Part shown: one piece after another, positions 764-64,000 of the stretch | Numbering within the stretch: position 1 is the first letter of the stretch | Layout: the number at the start of each line of letters is the position of its first letter | Source: Bacteroidia bacterium | GTDB lineage: Bacteria > Bacteroidota > Bacteroidia > NS11-12g > UBA955 | NCBI GenBank assembly: GCA_023228875.1 | Contig: JALOAG010000005.1 | Location: 149,801-213,800, forward strand | Direction: 5' to 3' | DNA length: 64,000 nucleotides | Position numbers and translations under genes: made by a program | Notes under the pieces: generated by a model | The model's input: the letters and a program-made list of their open reading frames with translations, nothing else | Told to the model about the DNA's origin: nothing | The model's database searches: none

Positions 764-1867
764 CTATTCACCAATCAATCGCGAAAAATCTCCATGCAAT
801 CCACCTCCTATACTGTCAGCAGTTGCTCCAGTACCTGATTTTAATATATTGACTTGATTTTGAACTCTGAGTAATCCCAAAAATGCAAAAACAAGAGCTT
901 CTTTATAATGAATCAAATTTGCATCCGGCAATATTATTTCTGCCTCTGTGTGAGTACGAATGTGTTCAACCAATACCTTGTTAAGAGCTCCGCCTCCTGT
1001 TATCAAGACTCTTTTTCCATTTCCGTTATTATTTGCGAGTAAATTGATGGCTGATGCAATTTGTACTGCAATATGATCAACCATTGTTTTCATTTTGCTT
1101 TCTGAACTTAAATCTGCAAAATCGCGAATAATACCCCAGAATTCTTGGTTAATCCAATCCCTGTTTAAGCTTTTGGGATAATGCTGTTTGTAATATTCAA
1201 TAGCATTGAGCGAACCCAATAGTTCGTAATTAATATTCCCTTTTTCTGCAATGGCACCATCTTCATCAAATGATTTTCCTTTGTCTCGAGCAATTCTATT
1301 CAAAGGAATATTGCAAGGACATATATCAAAAGACGCTCTATTGCCTGTAGTATCATTGCCGGAAATATTGGCAAATCCACCTAAGTTAAGACAGAAGTCA
1401 TATTCACCAAACAATAATTGGTCGCCAATGGTAACTAAAGGAGCGCCTTCGCCTCCTTTGGCTAAATCTGCTCTTCTGAAATCGTTAACAACTGGAAGTC
1501 CGCAAATGGCGGATAGACTGGCTCCATCGCCTATTTGTGCAGTAATTTTAATTTCCGGAAGATGAAAAGCAGTATGTCCATGTGATGCAACGAAATCAAC
1601 ATCGGATAAGCTGTAATTATGTATAAACTGTTTTACTAATTCACCAAGGTAATGACCGTAAAATACATCTGTTTTTACATAGGTAAGTGCATTTTGTCTT
1701 CTCAGTTGTGACAGTCTGATACGCCATTTTTCTTCATAAGGAATAGTTTCTGCGTGCTTTATTTCAAAGTGCCATTTGTTGTTGTTATTCGAAAATTCAC
1801 AATAAGCGATATCTGTACCATCCATTGAGCTTCCGCTCATCAAACCGATAATTTTAAATATTTTCAT
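764..1867 (-). CDS. anmK: Anhydro-N-acetylmuramic acid kinase
   Basis: GLMSGSSMDGTD, SHGHT, DFRRADLAKGGEGAPLV, GGGALN and KEALVFAFLG motifs. Confidence 0.95.
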   Translation of the reverse strand: MKIFKIIGLMSGSSMDGTDIAYCEFSNNNNKWHFEIKHAETIPYEEKWRIRLSQLRRQNALTYVKTDVFYGHYLGELVKQFIHNYSLSDVDFVASHGHTAFHLPEIKITAQIGDGASLSAICGLPVVNDFRRADLAKGGEGAPLVTIGDQLLFGEYDFCLNLGGFANISGNDTTGNRASFDICPCNIPLNRIARDKGKSFDEDGAIAEKGNINYELLGSLNAIEYYKQHYPKSLNRDWINQEFWGIIRDFADLSSESKMKTMVDHIAVQIASAINLLANNNGNGKRVLITGGGALNKVLVEHIRTHTEAEIILPDANLIHYKEALVFAFLGLLRVQNQVNILKSGTGATADSIGGGLHGDFSRLIGE

Positions 1868-1905
1868 CTCTTTACAATTTATTAATACTATTCTTTTACT
1901 AAAAA

Positions 1906-2760
1906 CTAATTTTCATTTGTCATCAAAAGCGCCATAGCGTCCAATGTTTTACCTTGATGAAGCAATTCTATAGCAGTAGCTTCAATATCCTTGCAGTGTT
2001 TGTATGTCTCAGCAGCTAACTTGATATCTTCAACAGAGGGCATAAACTCTAAGTTGCCTAATTGACCAAGGTGATTTCCTGTAAGCCTATTGCTGTTCCT
2101 AATTTTTGCAGGCAAAGCGTCAATCCCTATACCGCAGGTAACAATATGACGTTCAAGTTCAAAAATTGCTTCCCCATGTGCTCTGCAATACCAATTACCA
2201 CCCATTCTGGCAATTAAATCTATTTTGCTTTGGTCAATCATTTTATTGGCATCCAAAACATCTTCGTGAATGTGAATCAATTTTACTTCACAAATAATCA
2301 GATTGCCTGCTGCGCCACCGGTACCCAGTTCTTTTACTTCCAAGACTTCACATTCCATTTGAACAGGGCTTTCTTTGACTCTATAGGGTTTAATAAGTTC
2401 AGAAGGAATGGGGGTAAATCCGGCTTTTGCAAATTCATCTGTGCCTTTAGGATAAGGACATCCAGCCAGCGTAATTTGATGTAGCATGTCGTATGTTACA
2501 ACATTAATGACCACTTCAGGAACTTCTTTTACATTGTCGTGTGTATGTTTAGTTTCAGCAGTTCTGCCACTGCGTGCAGGAGAAAAAACTGCTATGGGTG
2601 GATTTGCACTAAAAACATTAAAGAAACTGAACGGTGCTAAATTTCTATTCCCATCTTTGTCTATTGTACTAGCAAAGCATATTGGACGAGGACCGACAGC
2701 TCCCAGTAAATATTTGTGAACTAAAGGAATTGGTTGTTCTTTGGTATTGATAGTAAACAT
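1906..2760 (-). CDS. Flavin reductase family protein (DIM6/NTAB-like)
   Basis: VGPRPICFASTID, NLAPFSFFN, VKESPVQMEC and IARMGGNWY motifs. Real start is probably ATG 2760; the ORF-track extension to 2946 overlaps the MCE gene. Confidence 0.85.
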   Translation of the reverse strand: MFTINTKEQPIPLVHKYLLGAVGPRPICFASTIDKDGNRNLAPFSFFNVFSANPPIAVFSPARSGRTAETKHTHDNVKEVPEVVINVVTYDMLHQITLAGCPYPKGTDEFAKAGFTPIPSELIKPYRVKESPVQMECEVLEVKELGTGGAAGNLIICEVKLIHIHEDVLDANKMIDQSKIDLIARMGGNWYCRAHGEAIFELERHIVTCGIGIDALPAKIRNSNRLTGNHLGQLGNLEFMPSVEDIKLAAETYKHCKDIEATAIELLHQGKTLDAMALLMTNEN

Positions 2761-2768
2761 AGAGTGTG

Positions 2769-2776
2769 CAAAGATA
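2769..2776 (-). promoter_or_regulatory. Bacteroidota -7 element (TATCTTTG)
   Basis: Exact TAnnTTTG match 8 nt upstream of ATG 2760. Confidence 0.55.
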
Positions 2777-2842
2777 TTTATAGAATCAAGATTTCTATAA
2801 CAAAAGGTTAAATGAGAAAAGAATTCGGTTATAGCGTAATCG

Positions 2843-3811
2843 CTATTGATTGTAACTTTCTTGGCTACTCTTTTTCTTTGCGTCTTTTCTTTGTTTTTTA
2901 CCCCAAGGCATCGGGACGTATTTTTCGGGGTATTTGTTGATGTCAATTAACAACTTGTTTAAGTCTGCTAAGGTCGCAGTTAGTTTGTCATACAATTGAG
3001 TATCATTCACTAATTTACCTGCTGAACCCTCTCCGTTGTCAATCTTTTTGGTGATGGATTCTACGTTTGCCAAGGTCGCATCTAATCTAGCCAGAATATC
3101 AGATTTAGCAAGTGTAGAGGTGAATTCACCCAAATTCTGTAAAGTTTGAGCAAGTTCATTGCGTTTTGCAGCTAACTCAGCAGTCAATAACTTAATGTTG
3201 TCAAGAGTCTTGGTGATATTTTCATGATTGGCAGTAATCATGTTCGAACTTTTATTAGCTAAATTTTCAATTGCGGTCATCACATCTGTTGTTTTAGTAA
3301 TGGCTGCCTGTAATTGACCTGTTTTGACTACCACAGAATCTAAGTAGTCAACTATTCTTTCAATCTTTTTTGCTATAGGATCCACTGATTGAGTAAACTC
3401 ATCCAACAGTGACACTTCAGTACTGGATAGAAGGGTATCACCGGATTCTAAGTAAGTGTTGTAATGATCATTTAAAATCAGTTTAATTGATTTTCCGCCT
3501 AACAAACCATCTGAAACGATTTCAGCGGTTGAATTAATGGGAATGTCAAGAGGCTCAACAATTTTGAGGATTGTAACAATCTTATTTTTTTTAGTATCGC
3601 GAGTCAAGGAGTTGATATATCCCACTTTATATCCATTGAGAAGTACGCTCTGCCCTTTTCTTAATCCGGGTGTTTGGTCATATACTGCAACGTAATAAGT
3701 TTTAGGTTTGAAAAAATCCCCCTCATTAGCCATATAGTTATATCCCAATATCAGGAAGGTGATTGCAACTGCGGTCAGTGCTCCAATTTTACTTTCGTTT
3801 GATACTTTCAA
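2843..3811 (-). CDS. MCE/MlaD family protein
   Basis: N-terminal TM, GL..G..V.LNGYKVGYI, IP.NSTAEI.SDGLLGGK.I, coiled-coil tail ending GSAGKLVNDTQLY. Confidence 0.9.
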   Translation of the reverse strand: MKVSNESKIGALTAVAITFLILGYNYMANEGDFFKPKTYYVAVYDQTPGLRKGQSVLLNGYKVGYINSLTRDTKKNKIVTILKIVEPLDIPINSTAEIVSDGLLGGKSIKLILNDHYNTYLESGDTLLSSTEVSLLDEFTQSVDPIAKKIERIVDYLDSVVVKTGQLQAAITKTTDVMTAIENLANKSSNMITANHENITKTLDNIKLLTAELAAKRNELAQTLQNLGEFTSTLAKSDILARLDATLANVESITKKIDNGEGSAGKLVNDTQLYDKLTATLADLNKLLIDINKYPEKYVPMPWGKKQRKDAKKKSSQESYNQ

Positions 3812-58175: not shown

Positions 58176-58754
58176 ATGAAGGTGGCGAAAAGACAGTTAA
58201 TAATAGATAAAGCGCTGGAATTAATCAGAAAAAACGGATACCACGCAACAGGAATGAGAGAACTTGCAAAGGCTTTTGACATGGAAGCCCCAAGTTTATA
58301 TAATCATATTAGTTCTAAAGAAGAAATTTTACAAGAAACATGCTTTGGCATGGCAGATAAGTTTATAACTGCATTGGATGAAGTCAATGATATTTATTTT
58401 AATGGCGAAGAAAAATTACGCATGGGAATAAGAAATCATATAGAAATTCTTACAGCGAACTTAAATGCGACCCATGTGTTTTTATATGAATGGCAGAATT
58501 TAAGTGAGCCATATTTGAGCAAATTTGTAGAATTAAGACATCAATACCAAGACGGTTACAGACAGATTATTATGACAGGCGAAAAAGAAGGTGTGTTTAA
58601 AGAAAGTGATATCAAGTTTGCAACACTAACAATATTATCTGCAATAAACTGGGTTATAGAGTGGTATAGACCGGACGGCAAAATGAGTCCAAAAGAAATT
58701 GCAGATAAACTCACTGACTTTATTTTGTCAGGACTAAAAAAAGAAAAAATATAA
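58176..58754 (+). CDS. TetR/AcrR family transcriptional regulator (PaaR-like by context)
   Basis: N-terminal HTH GYHATGMRELA...SLYNHISSKEEIL; heads the paa genes. Confidence 0.9.
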   Translation: MKVAKRQLIIDKALELIRKNGYHATGMRELAKAFDMEAPSLYNHISSKEEILQETCFGMADKFITALDEVNDIYFNGEEKLRMGIRNHIEILTANLNATHVFLYEWQNLSEPYLSKFVELRHQYQDGYRQIIMTGEKEGVFKESDIKFATLTILSAINWVIEWYRPDGKMSPKEIADKLTDFILSGLKKEKI

Positions 58755-58767
58755 ATCATCAATACTT

Positions 58768-59757
58768 ATGTACGGAAACGCTTACATCGACCCCGACCAA
58801 ACCCCTAACAAATATACTCAAGACGAAGATCTTGAAAAACTTGCTGAATTTGAGGCAAGGATTGAAGGAGGAGATAAAATTGAACCCAAAGATTGGATGC
58901 CCAAAGAGTACAGAAGGCAATTAGTAAGAATGATTGAGCAGCATGCTCATTCTGAAATTATTGGAGCTTTGCCTGAAGGTACATGGATAACACGTGCGCC
59001 CGGCTTTAGACGTAAACTGGCACTAATGGCTAAGGTACAAGACGAAGTAGGACATGCTCAATTACTTTATAGCGCTGCCGAAACTCTTGGTAAATCACGT
59101 GAAGAAATGATAAATGACTTAATTAACGGTAAGTCAAAATATTCTAATGTGTTCAATTACCCGGCAGTAACTTGGGCAGACTCTGCCATCATTGCATGGT
59201 TGATAGATGCAGGTGCAATCGTAAATCAACTTGCCAATTCAAAAGGTAGCTATGGTCCCTATTGCAGGGCACTTGAAAGAATTTGTGTAGAAGAATCTTT
59301 TCACTTGAAATATGGACATGATAATGTTGTATTCTTAGCAACCGGCACTAAAACCCAACGCGACATGGTGCAAGATGCGCTCACAAGATGGTGGACTCCT
59401 ATCATGCATTTCTTTGGACCAAGCGACAAAATCTCAGTACACACTGAAACATTGATGAAATGGAAAGTAAAAATGGCTTCAAACGATGAAATGCGCCAAA
59501 CTTTCCTTAATATGTATGTCCCTAAAATTTGGGATTTAGGTCTTGTAATTCCTGACCCAAACTTGAAGAAAAATGAGAGTACAGGACTCTGGGAATATAC
59601 TGAGCCGGATTGGGAAGAATTTAAAAGAGTTATTAATGGTGATGGACCTTGTAATAAAGAAAGACTTGCTGTAAGAAAATATGCTGAAGAAAAAGGAAGA
59701 TGGGTGCGCAAGGCGCTTTTAAAGAAAGATGCAGAATATGTTACTCCGCTTGTTTAA
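58768..59757 (+). CDS. paaA: 1,2-phenylacetyl-CoA epoxidase, subunit A (catalytic)
   Basis: IEPKDWMP..YR, QHAHSEIIG.LPEG.WITRAP, AKVQDEVGH, SYGPY.RA..RIC.EESFH. Confidence 0.96.
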   Translation: MYGNAYIDPDQTPNKYTQDEDLEKLAEFEARIEGGDKIEPKDWMPKEYRRQLVRMIEQHAHSEIIGALPEGTWITRAPGFRRKLALMAKVQDEVGHAQLLYSAAETLGKSREEMINDLINGKSKYSNVFNYPAVTWADSAIIAWLIDAGAIVNQLANSKGSYGPYCRALERICVEESFHLKYGHDNVVFLATGTKTQRDMVQDALTRWWTPIMHFFGPSDKISVHTETLMKWKVKMASNDEMRQTFLNMYVPKIWDLGLVIPDPNLKKNESTGLWEYTEPDWEEFKRVINGDGPCNKERLAVRKYAEEKGRWVRKALLKKDAEYVTPLV

Positions 59758-59778
59758 TTAAATAATGAAAAAGAAAAT

Positions 59779-60156
59779 ATGAAAATACATTCATTAGACC
59801 CTAGAATTACTCGTGCAGAAATAGATAGTGAAAAACCGTTTGAAGTAGCTAAAGAATTAGATCAGTGGCAAACCTATGAGGTTTTTCATCAAACCAAGCG
59901 CGGGCTACAACATCAACATGTAGGTTGTGTTCATGCACCTAACGCAGAAATGGCACTCTTGTTTGCTAAAGAAGTGTATGGACGCAGAGGTATGTGTGTA
60001 AATCTGTGGGTAGCCAAGTCTGCTAATATTTATGCATCTGACTATGAAGATGCAGATATTTTTGAGGCAGAAGAAGTCAAAACATATCGAGATCCGGGTT
60101 ATTATAAAGTGATGGATAGAATTAGAGCATTTAAAGAAAAACAACAATCGTTATGA
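59779..60156 (+). CDS. paaB: 1,2-phenylacetyl-CoA epoxidase, subunit B (N-terminally extended)
   Basis: YEVF, HVGCVHAP.AEMAL..AKEVY.RR...VNLWV. Confidence 0.88.
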   Translation: MKIHSLDPRITRAEIDSEKPFEVAKELDQWQTYEVFHQTKRGLQHQHVGCVHAPNAEMALLFAKEVYGRRGMCVNLWVAKSANIYASDYEDADIFEAEEVKTYRDPGYYKVMDRIRAFKEKQQSL

Positions 60157-60923
60157 ACATATCTGAAAAAGGATTTGAAGCAATCAAGGATTTGCTCTAT
60201 AAAATGGCTGATGACCAATTGATTATTGGGCATAGAAATTCTGAATGGACAGGGTTAGGTCCTGTATTAGAAGAAGATATTGCGTTTTCTTCAATGGCTC
60301 AAGATAAACTTGGACATGCACAAGCGTTATATGAAATTCTTAGCCAAATGGGAGAGGGAGACCCTGATACCATAGCGTTTATGCGTAATGCAGAGCAATT
60401 TCATTGCTGCCATTTGGTTGAACTCCCGATTGGAGAATATGAATTTAGTTTAATGCGACATTTTTTCTTTGATAATGCTGAATTATTACGCTTCGAAATG
60501 TTGGCAAACTCATCTTTCGAACCATTGTCCTTCCTTTCTAAAAAAATTAAAGGTGAAATCAAATATCATACTATGCATGCGGATGTTTGGATATCTCAGC
60601 TGGGCAACGCTTCTGAAGAGAGTAATATTAGAATGCAAAATGCGCTGAATGCCACATTCTCATTGGCACTAGGAATATTTGAAAAAGGAAATTTTGAAGA
60701 TGTGTTAATATCAGAAGGTATTTTTGATGGAGAAGAATCGCTTAAAGCCAAGTGGCTCAATGTAGTGATTCCAATACTTGAAAAGTCAGGGTTGAATGTT
60801 CCGGACCCAAATGCAACAACTGCTTCTATGGGTGGACGTAAAGGAAATCATACCGAACATTTACAATCGCTGTTAAATGAAATGACAGAAGTATTTAGAA
60901 TAGACCCTGCAGCAGAATGGTAG
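60153..60923 (+). CDS. paaC: 1,2-phenylacetyl-CoA epoxidase, subunit C
   Basis: ADD.LI.GHR.SEW.G..P.LEEDIA, KE..YH-like GEIKYH, GRKG.HTEHL..LL.EM. Confidence 0.94.
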   Translation: MNISEKGFEAIKDLLYKMADDQLIIGHRNSEWTGLGPVLEEDIAFSSMAQDKLGHAQALYEILSQMGEGDPDTIAFMRNAEQFHCCHLVELPIGEYEFSLMRHFFFDNAELLRFEMLANSSFEPLSFLSKKIKGEIKYHTMHADVWISQLGNASEESNIRMQNALNATFSLALGIFEKGNFEDVLISEGIFDGEESLKAKWLNVVIPILEKSGLNVPDPNATTASMGGRKGNHTEHLQSLLNEMTEVFRIDPAAEW

Positions 60924-60939
60924 ATAAGCGAGGTGTGAA

Positions 60940-61425
60940 ATGTTAGTTACCCAAGCAGATGTGCTCAATGCGCTCAAAGAAGTAAGCGACCCTGAAATTC
61001 CCACTATTTCTATTGTGGATTTGGGGATTGTTACAAAAATTGTTATTAATCCTGAACAGACATACGTAGAGCTGACTCCTACATTTGCAGGTTGTCCGGC
61101 ACTTAGAATAATGGAAACATTGGTAGTAAATAAACTAAGTGAAAAAGGGTTCGCTAACCCTGTAGCTAAAACAACTTTTGAAGTTCAATGGAATACAAGT
61201 ATGATTTCAGAAGCCGGTTTGTTTGCATTAAAGAAGCATGGACTTGCTCCACCTCAACCGATTGATGGAGAATTAAATTTGAATGATTTAAAGAAAATCC
61301 CTTGCCCTTATTGCGACAGTCCAAATACTGAACTCAAAAGCCCTTTTGGTCCAACTCTCTGTCGTTCAATACACTATTGCAACGATTGCCTGCAAACGTT
61401 CGAGGCGTTTAAACCCGTACAATAA
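60940..61425 (+). CDS. paaD: 1,2-phenylacetyl-CoA epoxidase, subunit D
   Basis: V.DPEIP.ISIVDLG, TPTF.GCPA, CPYCDS.NT, FGPTLCRSIHYC.DCLQTFE.FK. Confidence 0.94.
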   Translation: MLVTQADVLNALKEVSDPEIPTISIVDLGIVTKIVINPEQTYVELTPTFAGCPALRIMETLVVNKLSEKGFANPVAKTTFEVQWNTSMISEAGLFALKKHGLAPPQPIDGELNLNDLKKIPCPYCDSPNTELKSPFGPTLCRSIHYCNDCLQTFEAFKPVQ

Positions 61426-61514
61426 TCCTTGCCGGGTTGCAAACTGATTTATTGTATATCATGCAATAGAGTAGTGATTGCTAATGTTGGACTATCGCAC
61501 TGCAACAGAACTCA

Positions 61515-61982
61515 TTAGCAAAATATGTTGTAATTGACAAAAGCATTGAGCCAATGTGTAAGATTTCCGTCAACGGAGAAATTCTTATCAATGGTCATTC
61601 TAAGATTGTTTTGGGCGAAATGATGTTCAAACAGAGTTGATGAATACACCTGTTGCAAATCATGATTTGAAAGAAGTAAGAGTTCATTGGACAACATTTG
61701 AAAGATGGCGTATTTTAAAATATTTAAGCACAAGTGTTTGAAAAGCAGATTGAGTGCTTTAAAAAAGGAGAGGGGAAGTATATTTGTGAGTTCCCGACAA
61801 GCGAAACCGACCTGCGCTCCATTCAAAAGATACTCAGATACAATAATAGAAAAACTACAAAAATCTAATTTTATAAGGGTACAAAAAGCCTTCCAAAACA
61901 TCAAAAGTCCGTTTTGCGATTTGTAGTATGAATAATACACCAAGCCAAACAAGAGTAAATTATTTGTGTATTTTTGTTGCAT
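61515..61982 (-). other. Unexplained 155-codon ORF, possibly spurious or a degraded gene
   Basis: No recognisable motifs; lies between paaD and the cassette region. Confidence 0.2.
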
Positions 61983-62039
61983 ATATAAATGAGTTTCCGG
62001 CTAGCATAAAAGACTACATCACAACGCTCACAACTCCTA

Positions 62040-62161
62040 TATAAACCACCCAAAAAACCAACTTAAAAAGCATAGTTGAAAAAACAAGTGTGCTTAAAAC
62101 GCTTCTAATGAAGCCGTTTTTGATGTTTTTTTCTTTTTTTAGAGAGTTGTGCAACAGCTAC
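62040..62161 (+). mobile_element. Possible IS (IS1182-like) terminal remnant interrupting an attC-like site
   Basis: Ends in GAGTTGTGCAACAGCTAC (62144-62161), which from memory resembles IS1182-type termini. The open frame leading into it reads ...NLKSIVEKTSVLKTLLMKPFLMFFSFFRELCNSY. No transposase body and no convincing partner inverted repeat. Confidence 0.3.
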
Positions 62162-62178
62162 CCGTGTTAGCACTCGTT
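62162..62178 (-). repeat. Truncated attC-like site downstream of the cassette gene (core TGCTAAC plus start of left arm)
   Basis: Minus strand reads ACGAGTGCTAACACGGG, with the core 13 nt after the stop codon. The core is the exact complement of GTTAGCA upstream of the gene. Confidence 0.55.
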
Positions 62179-62185
62179 TTTCTTT

Positions 62186-63388
62186 TCAATTCGTCAATTT
62201 TGGTCTCTCCGTTTTTACTAAAAGTCCGTTTGCAATAAAACTATCTCCTGTTGTCAATTCTATTGTGTAAGTTAATTGTTCCTCTTCAATTGTCTCAATG
62301 GAAATTATGTTTATAAACTTATTTTCAGTCGGGATAAAAACTCTGTCACCGATTTTTAATTGAATTACTTCAGATGTTTGTTCGTAATTGTTGTTTGATT
62401 TAGTTGGGTTTACTGATGCCCAAATTTTGTCTTCTGTCCAAAATGGGTGGTCGTCAGTTGCAATTATTTCTCTGTCTGAAAAGCGTAGTTTTAAAAGATA
62501 GGTATGTCTTGCTATAGTAAGTTCTGAAACTTTCACTTTGTCCAAATTACCTGTCAAATTATTGTATGTAAGAACCCAATCTTGATTTGTTATTTCTTCT
62601 ATTTTCTTTGTTGAATTGTCAGCCATTGTGATTTGTGTCCCTGCTGCGAAACAATGAACGTCTAAGCCGTCAAAATTGATTTCACTAACAGCAACGTCAT
62701 CGTATTTTGTGCCTTTGTAAATTTCTAAAATCTCTAAGGTTAGAATTAAGTCCTTTGTGCTATCAGTAGATTGAATAGGATTGATTTTAAAAGACTGAGT
62801 GTTGTTAATGTCTTTAAGTTCAAGAATTGCTGTCGGTTTGCCGTTCACAATCATTTTGAACTTTGCTACTCGTGAATTTGCTTTCCACAAGTCAGTATTT
62901 TTAATGTACCCGTTCCAAATTATTATTTCATTTACCCTTGGTGCATATGGTTTGAAATGAAAATTTATTTTATTTCCGATTGAACCGTTTGAGTTGTCAG
63001 GAATCCACGCAGTAAAAAGGTCAAAGTCGTGAATGTTGTCTGGTAAGTATGTTATTTTTCCTTCGTCTTTTAAATACGAAGAAGAGGTTATTTTGTAAGG
63101 TCCACCGCCACAATACCAACTGCAACCAACACCTTGCGTCAATGGACCGTAACCGCTTTCTAAAGAGTCAATCATTTTTTTGTCTTGCTCTGAAAGTTTC
63201 TCATAGTCAATCTCACCCGAATTGATTTTTCCATATTGGTCAAGTGCTTTTTGCCAAATTATTTGGTCTGCTTTTTTAAAGTCATTAGAAGCGTTAACTG
63301 TCGCCTGAATAATCGGCAAATTTTGACCTGAAATCGAAAGTCCCAAAGTCAAAAAGAAAATTGTCAATATGTAAGCTGTCTTTGTCAT
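62186..63388 (-). CDS. Secreted protein: NADase-type glycan-binding/discoidin-like domain plus C-terminal Hint (intein-like) domain; candidate gene-cassette ORF
   Basis: Signal peptide; GCSWYCGGG; DFDLFTAW, IIIWNGY.K....W.AN.RV, EILEIYKG.KY.DVAVSEI; then H-C246FAAGTQITMAD, T311DDH314PF, LKIGDRV, TYTIEL...SFIANGLLVKTE. Confidence 0.8.
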   Translation of the reverse strand: MTKTAYILTIFFLTLGLSISGQNLPIIQATVNASNDFKKADQIIWQKALDQYGKINSGEIDYEKLSEQDKKMIDSLESGYGPLTQGVGCSWYCGGGPYKITSSSYLKDEGKITYLPDNIHDFDLFTAWIPDNSNGSIGNKINFHFKPYAPRVNEIIIWNGYIKNTDLWKANSRVAKFKMIVNGKPTAILELKDINNTQSFKINPIQSTDSTKDLILTLEILEIYKGTKYDDVAVSEINFDGLDVHCFAAGTQITMADNSTKKIEEITNQDWVLTYNNLTGNLDKVKVSELTIARHTYLLKLRFSDREIIATDDHPFWTEDKIWASVNPTKSNNNYEQTSEVIQLKIGDRVFIPTENKFINIISIETIEEEQLTYTIELTTGDSFIANGLLVKTERPKLTN

Positions 63389-63411
63389 TTGTTGTGTCTT
63401 CCTAAAATGCC

Positions 63412-63548
63412 TGCTAACGGTTGGCAGCTACAAGAAGTTGGCGATTTTCACCACAACTACCCGTGCGGAGAACCAAATATTCATTAACCACAAATATGTC
63501 TGCGGAACACTCAACCGCCAATTTATTGTAGGTGCTGCTATGCCCAGT
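63412..63548 (-). repeat. attC-like imperfect palindrome (~135 bp) between two cassette-like genes
   Basis: Arms CTACAAGAAGTTGGCG (63428-63443) and CGCCAATTTATTGTAG (63516-63531) pair at 14/16. On the minus strand the element starts GGCATAGC and ends GTTAGCA, 23 nt before the next ATG. Confidence 0.7.
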
Positions 63549-63594
63549 ACTTTGTCCTTTTTCATAAGTTTAATATCAAGCCAAACCACTTCCA

Positions 63595-64000
63595 TCAATT
63601 TTCCTTTCGAGGAATCAGTAATTTGCTTTTTTGATTGGAACATCCTGTTTCTTTTATAGTTTCGGAAGGAATTAATTTGATTGTTTTGTCAGCCGTATCT
63701 CCAAGTCTGAAATGATAATATGTGTCGCAATTTAAAGAATCTATCACTATCTTTATTTCCTTTCTGCCAATTTGTAATTTGCAGTACATAGCACCGGAAG
63801 TATGTGAGAAAGTGACCACACTATCAGTTTCCGATACCTTAAAGCTTCTAATTTTTTTTCCGTTAGATGACAGCCCTATTTCTACTTTAACCATTTGTCC
63901 TGCCAGTCTCCATTCTTTGATATTGATGCATGTCAACCCACAACCTGGTTGAGCCTTAAGCATAAGTTTTGGAATGCAGATTATCAGAATCAAAAGGACT
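63595..64000 (-). CDS. Hypothetical secreted protein (5' end outside window); candidate upstream cassette ORF
   Basis: The frame stays open to the window edge (..VLLILIICIPKLMLKAQPGCG..) with a signal-peptide-like stretch. The stop lies ~50 nt before the attC-like element. Confidence 0.55.
   Translation of the reverse strand, partial: VLLILIICIPKLMLKAQPGCGLTCINIKEWRLAGQMVKVEIGLSSNGKKIRSFKVSETDSVVTFSHTSGAMYCKLQIGRKEIKIVIDSLNCDTYYHFRLGDTADKTIKLIPSETIKETGCSNQKSKLLIPRKEN

Follow-up and report, generated by a model that had tools for sequence, protein, structure and literature searches.

A probable integron gene cassette at the end of a Bacteroidota array and a possible overlooked integron lineage

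Integrons are the textbook platform for the capture and reshuffling of genes, and genome surveys portray Bacteroidota, a phylum dominant in gut, wastewater and soil communities, as almost without them. IntegronFinder surveys record almost nothing in Bacteroidetes proper: the IntegronFinder 2.0 survey lists In0 alone from earlier and a single complete integron, that of Salinibacter ruber (PMC9024848). A 2024 preprint describes Bacteroidota as a clade earlier found without integrons (10.1101/2024.07.02.601686). Integrons in Bacteroidota are nevertheless not new as such, since reviews name the phylum among those that carry them (PMC8618304, PMC9668308). Classical surveys pick intI through its additional domain (PMC2426708), without which IntI is reportedly inactive (Messier and Roy 2001, cited in PMC9668308). 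Clusters of attC sites without an integrase (CALINs) are recognized in the IntegronFinder definition (PMC9024848), and restriction–modification systems have been reported in chromosomal integron cassettes (10.1101/2024.07.02.601686). Here we analyse a 64,000-nucleotide stretch of a Bacteroidia bacterium chromosome (the window; contig JALOAG010000005.1, positions 149,801 to 213,800), at the right end of which one gene is bounded by complementary heptamers. We conclude that window 62166-63417 (minus strand) is very probably an integron gene cassette, the last in an array running rightwards out of the window. The original prediction, made from the DNA letters alone, had proposed such a cassette, and it is borne out by homology that breaks at the cores, by a match to an attC model and by a recombinase and attI beside the same cassette in a second genome.

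The focal cassette carries a single open reading frame (ORF) of 400 amino acids (coordinates in Table 1). On the coding strand, 23 nt separate the R′ core GTTAGCA from the ATG at 63388, and TGCTAAC lies 13 nt 3′ of the stop codon TGA (62188-62186), exactly as first read; the first bases of the cassette, TTAGCA, are exactly complementary to the TGCTAA of the second heptamer. The cores keep GTT and AAC and differ at two positions from GTTRRRY/RYYYAAC, a departure that had also been noted. Among the 63 window ORFs of at least 100 amino acids, the focal gene is the sole case of a GTTNNNN/NNNNAAC flank pair, which is unusual and not decisive alone. The motif TAnnTTTG, the Bacteroidota −7 element, has no match on the cassette strand across 62000-64000, in keeping with the claim that none lies between core and start, and the secreted-protein gene said to precede the upstream palindrome is a same-strand 137-amino-acid ORF with a signal-peptide-like N terminus. 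Two short sequences recur around the cores: an A-rich tract, GAAAAGAAA, a few bases 5′ of R″ at cassette ends (for example, window 62185-62173), and a (C)ATTTTAAGA-like motif with which many cassettes open, directly behind R′ (for example, window 63411-63395). Both are also seen at sites of the landfill locus L072.

Scanning of species-representative genomes revealed the same gene in a Flavobacterium metagenome-assembled genome (MAG; locus L002) and a Fermentimonas MAG (L003), at 84% and 77% amino acid identity, respectively. The window aligns by blastn with L002 over 63419-62165 (86.3%) and with L003 over 63419-62160 (81.0%), with no similarity beyond, and the gene thus occupies three unrelated neighbourhoods in three genomes. 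With a slash marking the junction, the 5′ boundary reads ...CCAACC/GTTAGCAGGCATTTTAGG in the window, ...GCGGAAC/GTTAGCACTCATTTTAGG in L002 and ...AATAAGAC/GTTAGCACTCATTTTAGA in L003, and the common cassette start GTTAGCAC follows an attC in L002 and an attI in L003. At the 3′ end all three share ...AACGAGTGCTAACA and then diverge. This junction comparison places the homology break points at G/TTAGCA and just after TGCTAAC(A); a unit bounded by G/TTAGCA and TGCTAAC is what would be expected of an integron cassette, with the predicted G/TT crossover between 63418 and 63417 as its 5′ edge. The cassette lies mid-array in L002, where three elements of ~138 nt stand between same-strand ORFs, and is the first of the array in L003, where a divergent tyrosine recombinase lies 215 nt away and an attI-like site adjoins the cassette. 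In both genomes, TGCTAAC starts a ~138-nt element ending ...AAC/GTT, which is the cassette's own attC in complete form (covariance-model scores of 112.5 bits in L002 and 109.7 bits in L003). The original prediction had advised looking for this ORF in different neighbourhoods and for a tyrosine recombinase with an attI-like site at an array head; the flanks do change, exactly at the cores, and such a head adjoins the same cassette in L003.

The ~138-nt elements belong to an attC family. They have AAC and GTT boxes and two stems, and share with attC sites as defined an imperfect palindrome of R″..AAC-L″...L′-R′GTT.. layout, bulged bases, a variable loop and a length within about 57-141 nt. Eight founder sites from L001-L003, where L001 is a 3754-nt European Nucleotide Archive (ENA) metagenome contig, give a consensus of 19 stem pairs with compensatory changes in 15. 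A covariance model (R1), trained on attC sites of other loci with the window site excluded, finds 46 sites at E ≤ 1e-5 across 19 sources. In the alignment of these 46 sites, which is itself fitted to the model, 86.8% of cells are paired versus 33-38% with slid partners, and the covariation score is 0.60 versus 0.06-0.12 in slid controls. Judged from these alignments the architecture appears canonical, of the single-strand type, and the strong covariation of the stems argues for selection on the folded form. In the window, searched with filters off, R1 matches one site over its full length (1-139), the attC of the upstream cassette (attC_A), which ends in the R′ core GTTAGCA of the focal cassette; no second R1 site occurs anywhere in the window and none lies left of the focal cassette. 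This site belongs to a 'type 2' subfamily with the pattern AAC-AGCAC-CTACCC...GGGTAGCTGC-AAAAC-GTT that is frequent in landfill contigs, and reads show its 3′ terminal part (63413-63447) to be multi-copy. The repeat does recur, as had been anticipated: one strong site stands just past the window end at L001:420-558, and dozens occur in related loci. The expectation of a Bacteroidota attC family that standard integron models may miss needs correction: the family may be lineage-specific, but its canonical architecture gives no ground for a miss, and it is instead the integrase that fails the usual criterion. The ENA contig is annotated with a 55-amino-acid gene (window 63428-63595, minus strand) that falls nearly all within attC_A and is probably spurious.

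The recombinase beside the cassette in L003 is a 280-amino-acid protein divergent from the cassettes, with Phage_integrase (1e-38) and SAM_4 domains and a score of 236 bits against NF040815, 'site-specific tyrosine recombinase/integron integrase' (cut-off 220). It has more than 5000 relatives at E ≤ 1e-30; among the 120 listed, nearly all are exactly 280 amino acids long, several carry the NCBI name 'tyrosine recombinase/integron integrase', and the few that are named by organism are mostly from Bacteroidales. The protein aligns continuously with archaeal XerA (5hxy, 4a8e), its best PDB sequence matches, and in two blocks with IntI4 (2a3v; query 9-183 with chain 8-180 and query 204-278 with chain 244-318), with which it has a C-terminal ...SPLD motif in common. 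Nine loci held enough upstream DNA for comparison (L003, L073, L075, L078, L079, L080, L081, L082 and L083), and in all except L081 R1 finds attC sites on the strand that does not encode the integrase. Samples with identical integrase proteins agree in the housekeeping genes on one side and differ in the genes on the attC side, complete restriction–modification systems among them. The region between integrase and cassettes is conserved across genera and includes an inverted AACATTCGTA, a pair of direct TACGAATGTT repeats and CGTAAATAAGAC/GTT, at which the first cassette begins; the end reads AAGAC/GTT in L003, L074, L075 and L077, and AAGACGAA in L073. This attI arrangement, beside the integrase gene and with the first cassette starting at G/TT, occurs in the relatives only, and the focal cassette starts at it in L003.

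Several further features of these platforms were observed. A second copy of the attI-like region lies 6.2 kb into the L003 array (L003:16044-16175), with cassettes after it again, and a 104-amino-acid N-terminal fragment of the integrase lies inside the L073 array (L073:7234-7548); both suggest internal duplications of the platform. One L003 cassette holds a 78-nt unit repeated five times in tandem (L003:17582-18118) inside a 177-amino-acid ORF. Cassettes beside the 280-amino-acid integrase encode restriction–modification systems of HaeIII type, of BsuBI/PstI type and with a type I HsdR, and others encode a pair of Hsp70 and UvrD-like helicase and a pair of trypsin-TPR protein and reverse transcriptase (L080:1244-6917, L083:949-4023, L082:263-5259, L075:6129-9629 and L066:89-4588). 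These cassette genes look like defence genes.

The array continues beyond the window on L001, which is 100% identical to window 62025-64000 (1976 nt) and extends 1.78 kb further right. It carries attC_A at L001:2234-2371 and, 1.7 kb upstream of it, a strong attC of 121 bits (L001:420-558), giving the order attC, 355-amino-acid gene, 137-amino-acid gene, attC_A and focal cassette. If L001 is the true continuation, the locus is a CALIN in the sense of at least two attC sites within 4 kb with no integrase nearby. A tblastn search with the L003 integrase was negative for the window and for the landfill loci L066-L072; this agrees with the earlier statement that the window holds no integrase, window ORFs not all having been scanned for other recombinases. 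We used Logan contigs of four metagenomes (X1, a landfill sample, and X2, X3 and X8) for depth and junctions. Sequence 61400-62041 is covered in all four, on 51-52-kb contigs in X1 and X8 and on shorter ones in X2 and X3, and the contigs stop 30 nt into a repeat, E, that follows the cassette; the cassette gene has a depth of ~38 in X1 and 0 in X2, X3 and X8. The junction between array and chromosome is therefore fixed and the neighbouring cassette variable, and together with the lack of attC sites further left this sustains the proposal that the cassette sits at the distal end of an array.

In the window, the cassette's own attC consists of R″ and 4 nt only, after which E begins. Repeat E is 471 nt long, with copies 97-99% identical (full copies, for example, at L072:348-818, minus strand, and L066:4841-5311), terminal sequences GTAGCTGTTGCACAAC...GTTGTGCAACAGGCAC, constant ends GTAGC-TGTTGCACAAC... 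and ...GTTGTGCAACA-GGCAC(A), and a near-terminal inverted repeat of 11-12 bp. It was found only in the window, L001 and the landfill loci L066-L072, always in cassette orientation and between R″ and L″ of attC sites: at 12 left junctions E is preceded by the cassette R″-A-NNN, and at 9 right junctions it is followed by A-NNNN-L″...rest of attC...GTT. None of the 7 complete copies has a target-site duplication. Word depth across the four metagenomes is 950-3300 for 62012-62170 versus 30-38 for neighbouring sequence, and in metagenomes from landfill, sludge and wastewater E is 25-100 times as deep as the chromosome beside it. Many different sequences adjoin 62169-62172, and a single consensus continuation, E from nt 151 onward, is found before 62012. 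The right end of E presents TTTG-21 nt-TATATTTG, which does not vary among seven copies and faces the next cassette; E may thus supply a promoter to the downstream cassette. At 471 nt E is too short for a transposase gene, and an Rfam scan of L001, which contains a full copy, gave no match.

What E is can be read in two ways. It could be a non-autonomous element homing to attC sites, by analogy with IS1111-attC; or, since E starts TTGCAC and the following attC has the R″ GTGCAAC, it could be an ORF-less cassette. Insertion at R′ as a standard cassette gives an incomplete account: at 12 of 12 left junctions, R″ and 4 nt are all that is left of the preceding attC. One E copy alone holds a long insert (L071 5959-7306), which was considered as an autonomous form and rejected as an unrelated nested insertion sequence. 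It splits the E copy at L071:5861-7411 (minus strand) at nt 215/216 and carries, on the opposite strand, a 516-amino-acid ORF that is transposase-like by appearance.

We saw no excision junction for the cassette. The 96-nt terminal overlap of L001, which might be taken for an excised circle, lies inside multi-copy E and hence reflects an assembly break at the repeat. A joint 62168->63435 in X1, X3 and X8, where ...CGCCAACTT (as in attC_A) is fused directly to AACACGGGTAGCTG (the R″-E junction), was likewise rejected as a precise excision: it offers 22 nt on one side, is not at G/TT and has single-copy depth in the runs without the cassette too. This joint does not fit an attC × attC product and probably stems from another locus.

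A number of results weigh against the cassette interpretation or narrow it. L002 and L003 are MAGs, and binning errors could affect their taxonomic labels. The 64-kb window contains no integrase or attI, and the rightward extension reaches only 1.78 kb. The focal cassette's own attC is undetectable in the window by the R1 scan, and the R″ of attC_A reads CATAGC, that is, ..TAGC for ..TAAC (AAC changed to AGC). The absence of the cassette from X2, X3 and X8 rests on assembled contigs, which are better at showing presence. The folding energy of DNA 63390-63570 is no better than that of shuffles (z = +0.91), as is also the case for the downstream region (z = −0.24), so folding energy alone lends no support; the ~135-bp palindrome that the upstream core was said to close accordingly stands as a full-length attC match, and not as an exceptional hairpin, being imperfect and folding at shuffle level. 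Finally, the L003 integrase scores 230 bits against TIGR02249, 'integron integrase', versus a cut-off of 265, and ~43 residues are missing relative to 2a3v at the IntI-specific additional domain (between chain 180 and 244), so the recombinase fails the usual definition of IntI.

These last two shortfalls, together with the continuous alignment to archaeal XerA, would suit an integron-like layout run by another mechanism, in which a Xer- or XerA-type recombinase lacks the IntI domain that reads extrahelical bases and may therefore recombine double-stranded cores or use other cofactors, in place of acting on folded, single-stranded attC bottom strands. The location of E in the spacer between R″ and L″, and not at R′, would also be an unusual junction for IntI chemistry. 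We nevertheless judge this mechanism unlikely: the attC sites have canonical single-strand architecture with strong covariation, cassette junctions fall at G/TT as in classical integrons, and the C-terminal SPLD motif is common to the integrase and IntI4.

Decidedly unlikely, in our view, is that the focal gene was placed or kept here through E, either by homologous recombination among direct E copies or by a mobile E carrying adjacent DNA. The near-identity, uniform orientation and very high depth of E copies point in that direction, as do the bounding of L001 by E at both sides, with its terminal overlap inside E, and the fixed E/chromosome junction beside a cassette that differs between samples. 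Recombination at E accounts for local reshuffling only, not for homology to L002 and L003 that ends at G/TT and R″, and elsewhere the gene is a complete attC-bearing cassette at attI without any E. An ordinary chromosomal gene, with heptamers paired by chance and hairpins serving as terminators or REP-like repeats, would suit the unexceptional folding energy of the palindrome and the 7-nt complementary match between 40-nt flanks in 4 of the 63 window ORFs (6%), but it conflicts with where the homology ends, with the match to the attC model and the covariation of that family, with the integrase and attI found beside the cassette, and with the gene's variable occurrence, and we give it almost no credence.

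We therefore retain an integron cassette as the explanation of the focal unit. In the mechanism we propose, one promoterless ORF would start at G/TTAGCA in the R′ of the preceding attC and end with its own R″, TGCTAAC. A tyrosine recombinase, whose activity and choice of strand we predict from sequence, would move such cassettes by recombining folded attC hairpins with each other or with the attI adjoining the integrase gene, on a platform like that of the relatives: a 280-amino-acid integrase, an attI ending AAGAC/GTT and divergent cassettes each with an attC of ~138 nt. At the window itself the system is locally degraded, with its own attC broken, the upstream R″ mutated and no integrase in view. 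Because the own attC is interrupted 4 nt after R″ by E, E is cut at the chromosomal junction and the attC_A R″ has changed from AAC to AGC, the focal cassette is probably no longer excisable by an integrase, and turnover at this array end may now proceed by homologous recombination between E copies.

The wider system fits an integron by layout and attC structure while failing the formal IntI criterion. We propose tentatively, as something a little short of an even call, that a widespread integron lineage, so far overlooked in practice, exists in Bacteroidota, as a minimum in Bacteroidales, and has cassettes in common with MAGs labelled as Flavobacteriales. It would combine a 280-amino-acid integrase without the IntI-specific domain, either lost or never present, and therefore skipped by domain-defined surveys; an attI of its own; canonical, lineage-specific attC sites; defence-system cassettes; and, in a landfill and wastewater lineage, a promoter-bearing 471-bp repeat that colonises attC. 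Our literature search, which did not cover subscription journals, returned no account of a Bacteroidales integron with a short integrase, and the system seems under-described in the literature searched. If the 280-amino-acid recombinases are working integron integrases, the additional domain is not universal, a point relevant to the recognition of attC hairpins, and detection tools that require this domain under-count integrons. A large Bacteroidota pool of mobile cassettes would then become visible, including secreted Hint-domain proteins and restriction–modification systems. The window offers a concrete, checkable case, with one cassette in three genomes.

Table 1. Features at the array end, in window coordinates
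Feature	Position	Strand	Remarks
Fixed chromosomal flank, array end to paaD	61426-62011		Contigs of four metagenomes
E, nt 1-150 of 471	62012-62161	-	blastn to E consensus 98.7%; cut at 62012 by chromosomal DNA
attC spacer remnant ACGG	62162-62165	-	L002/L003 homology ends here
R″ box TGCTAAC of the cassette's own attC	62166-62172	-	Opens complete attC in L002 and L003
Cassette ORF, 400 amino acids	62186-63388	-	Signal peptide, NADase-type discoidin and Hint
R′ core GTTAGCA	63412-63418	-	5′ cassette boundary; homology to L002 and L003 begins at 63419/63418
attC_A, attC of the upstream cassette ('type 2' subfamily)	63408-63545	-	R1 46.2 bits, E 1.7e-8
3′ part of the 137-amino-acid ORF of cassette A (355- and 137-amino-acid genes, start beyond the window)	63595-64000	-	L001 continuation

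The cassette protein begins with a signal-peptide-like N terminus, followed by an NADase-type discoidin (glycan-binding) domain at residues 91-240 (Pfam PF25302, 5e-40; NCBIfam NF047619, 6e-36) and a C-terminal Hint (intein-like) domain at residues 245-391 that starts with Cys246. TIGR01445 (intein N-term) and AXH both exceed their cut-offs, and PDB sequence matches include 6tmm/6y75 (Hint) and 7ji1 (NADase translocation domain). From these matches we infer a secreted, self-processing, glycan-binding product. The gene content of the window resembles that of Bacteroidota, with DUF5723, LptD_2 and a CHU_C type IX secretion domain among the encoded proteins. The fixed chromosomal flank holds only a doubtful 155-amino-acid ORF and has no Pfam or NCBIfam match. 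Directly left of the array end and converging on it, window 58176-61425 carries a TetR-like ORF and then four same-strand ORFs that read, from sequence alone, as paaA-D (phenylacetate-CoA oxygenase).

Among known systems, the locus most resembles the sedentary chromosomal integrons and CALINs, for which Vibrio arrays serve as the example and in which same-strand and mostly promoterless cassettes likewise lie between structured AAC...GTT attC sites. Like them, the relatives have G/TT junctions, a divergent intI with an adjacent attI and strain-variable cassette content beside conserved housekeeping genes; unlike them, the system here belongs to another host phylum, has a 280-amino-acid integrase without the additional domain and an attI with its own TACGAATGTT repeats, and in the window has a disrupted terminal attC with no integrase in view. 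The integrase has in common with IntI1 and VchIntIA (PDB 2a3v) a SAM-like N-terminal domain with a catalytic domain, a C-terminal SPL(D/S) and divergence from the cassettes; it differs in lacking the additional domain and in scoring nearer archaeal XerA overall. Repeat E resembles IS1111-attC elements (ISKpn4, ISPst6; PMC11187229), which like group IIC-attC introns home into attC, in being attC-targeted at one position, in one orientation and with no target duplication; its inverted repeats are of 11-12 bp versus 11-13 bp subterminal ones, and its extensions measure 4-6 nt on both sides versus 7 and 3. IS1111-attC elements carry a DEDD transposase and a seekRNA region, whereas E appears to carry neither a transposase nor a reverse transcriptase and has no Rfam match. 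With group IIC-attC introns (PMC3001079), for which an outward-facing promoter-like motif has been described, E shares the possession of such a motif.

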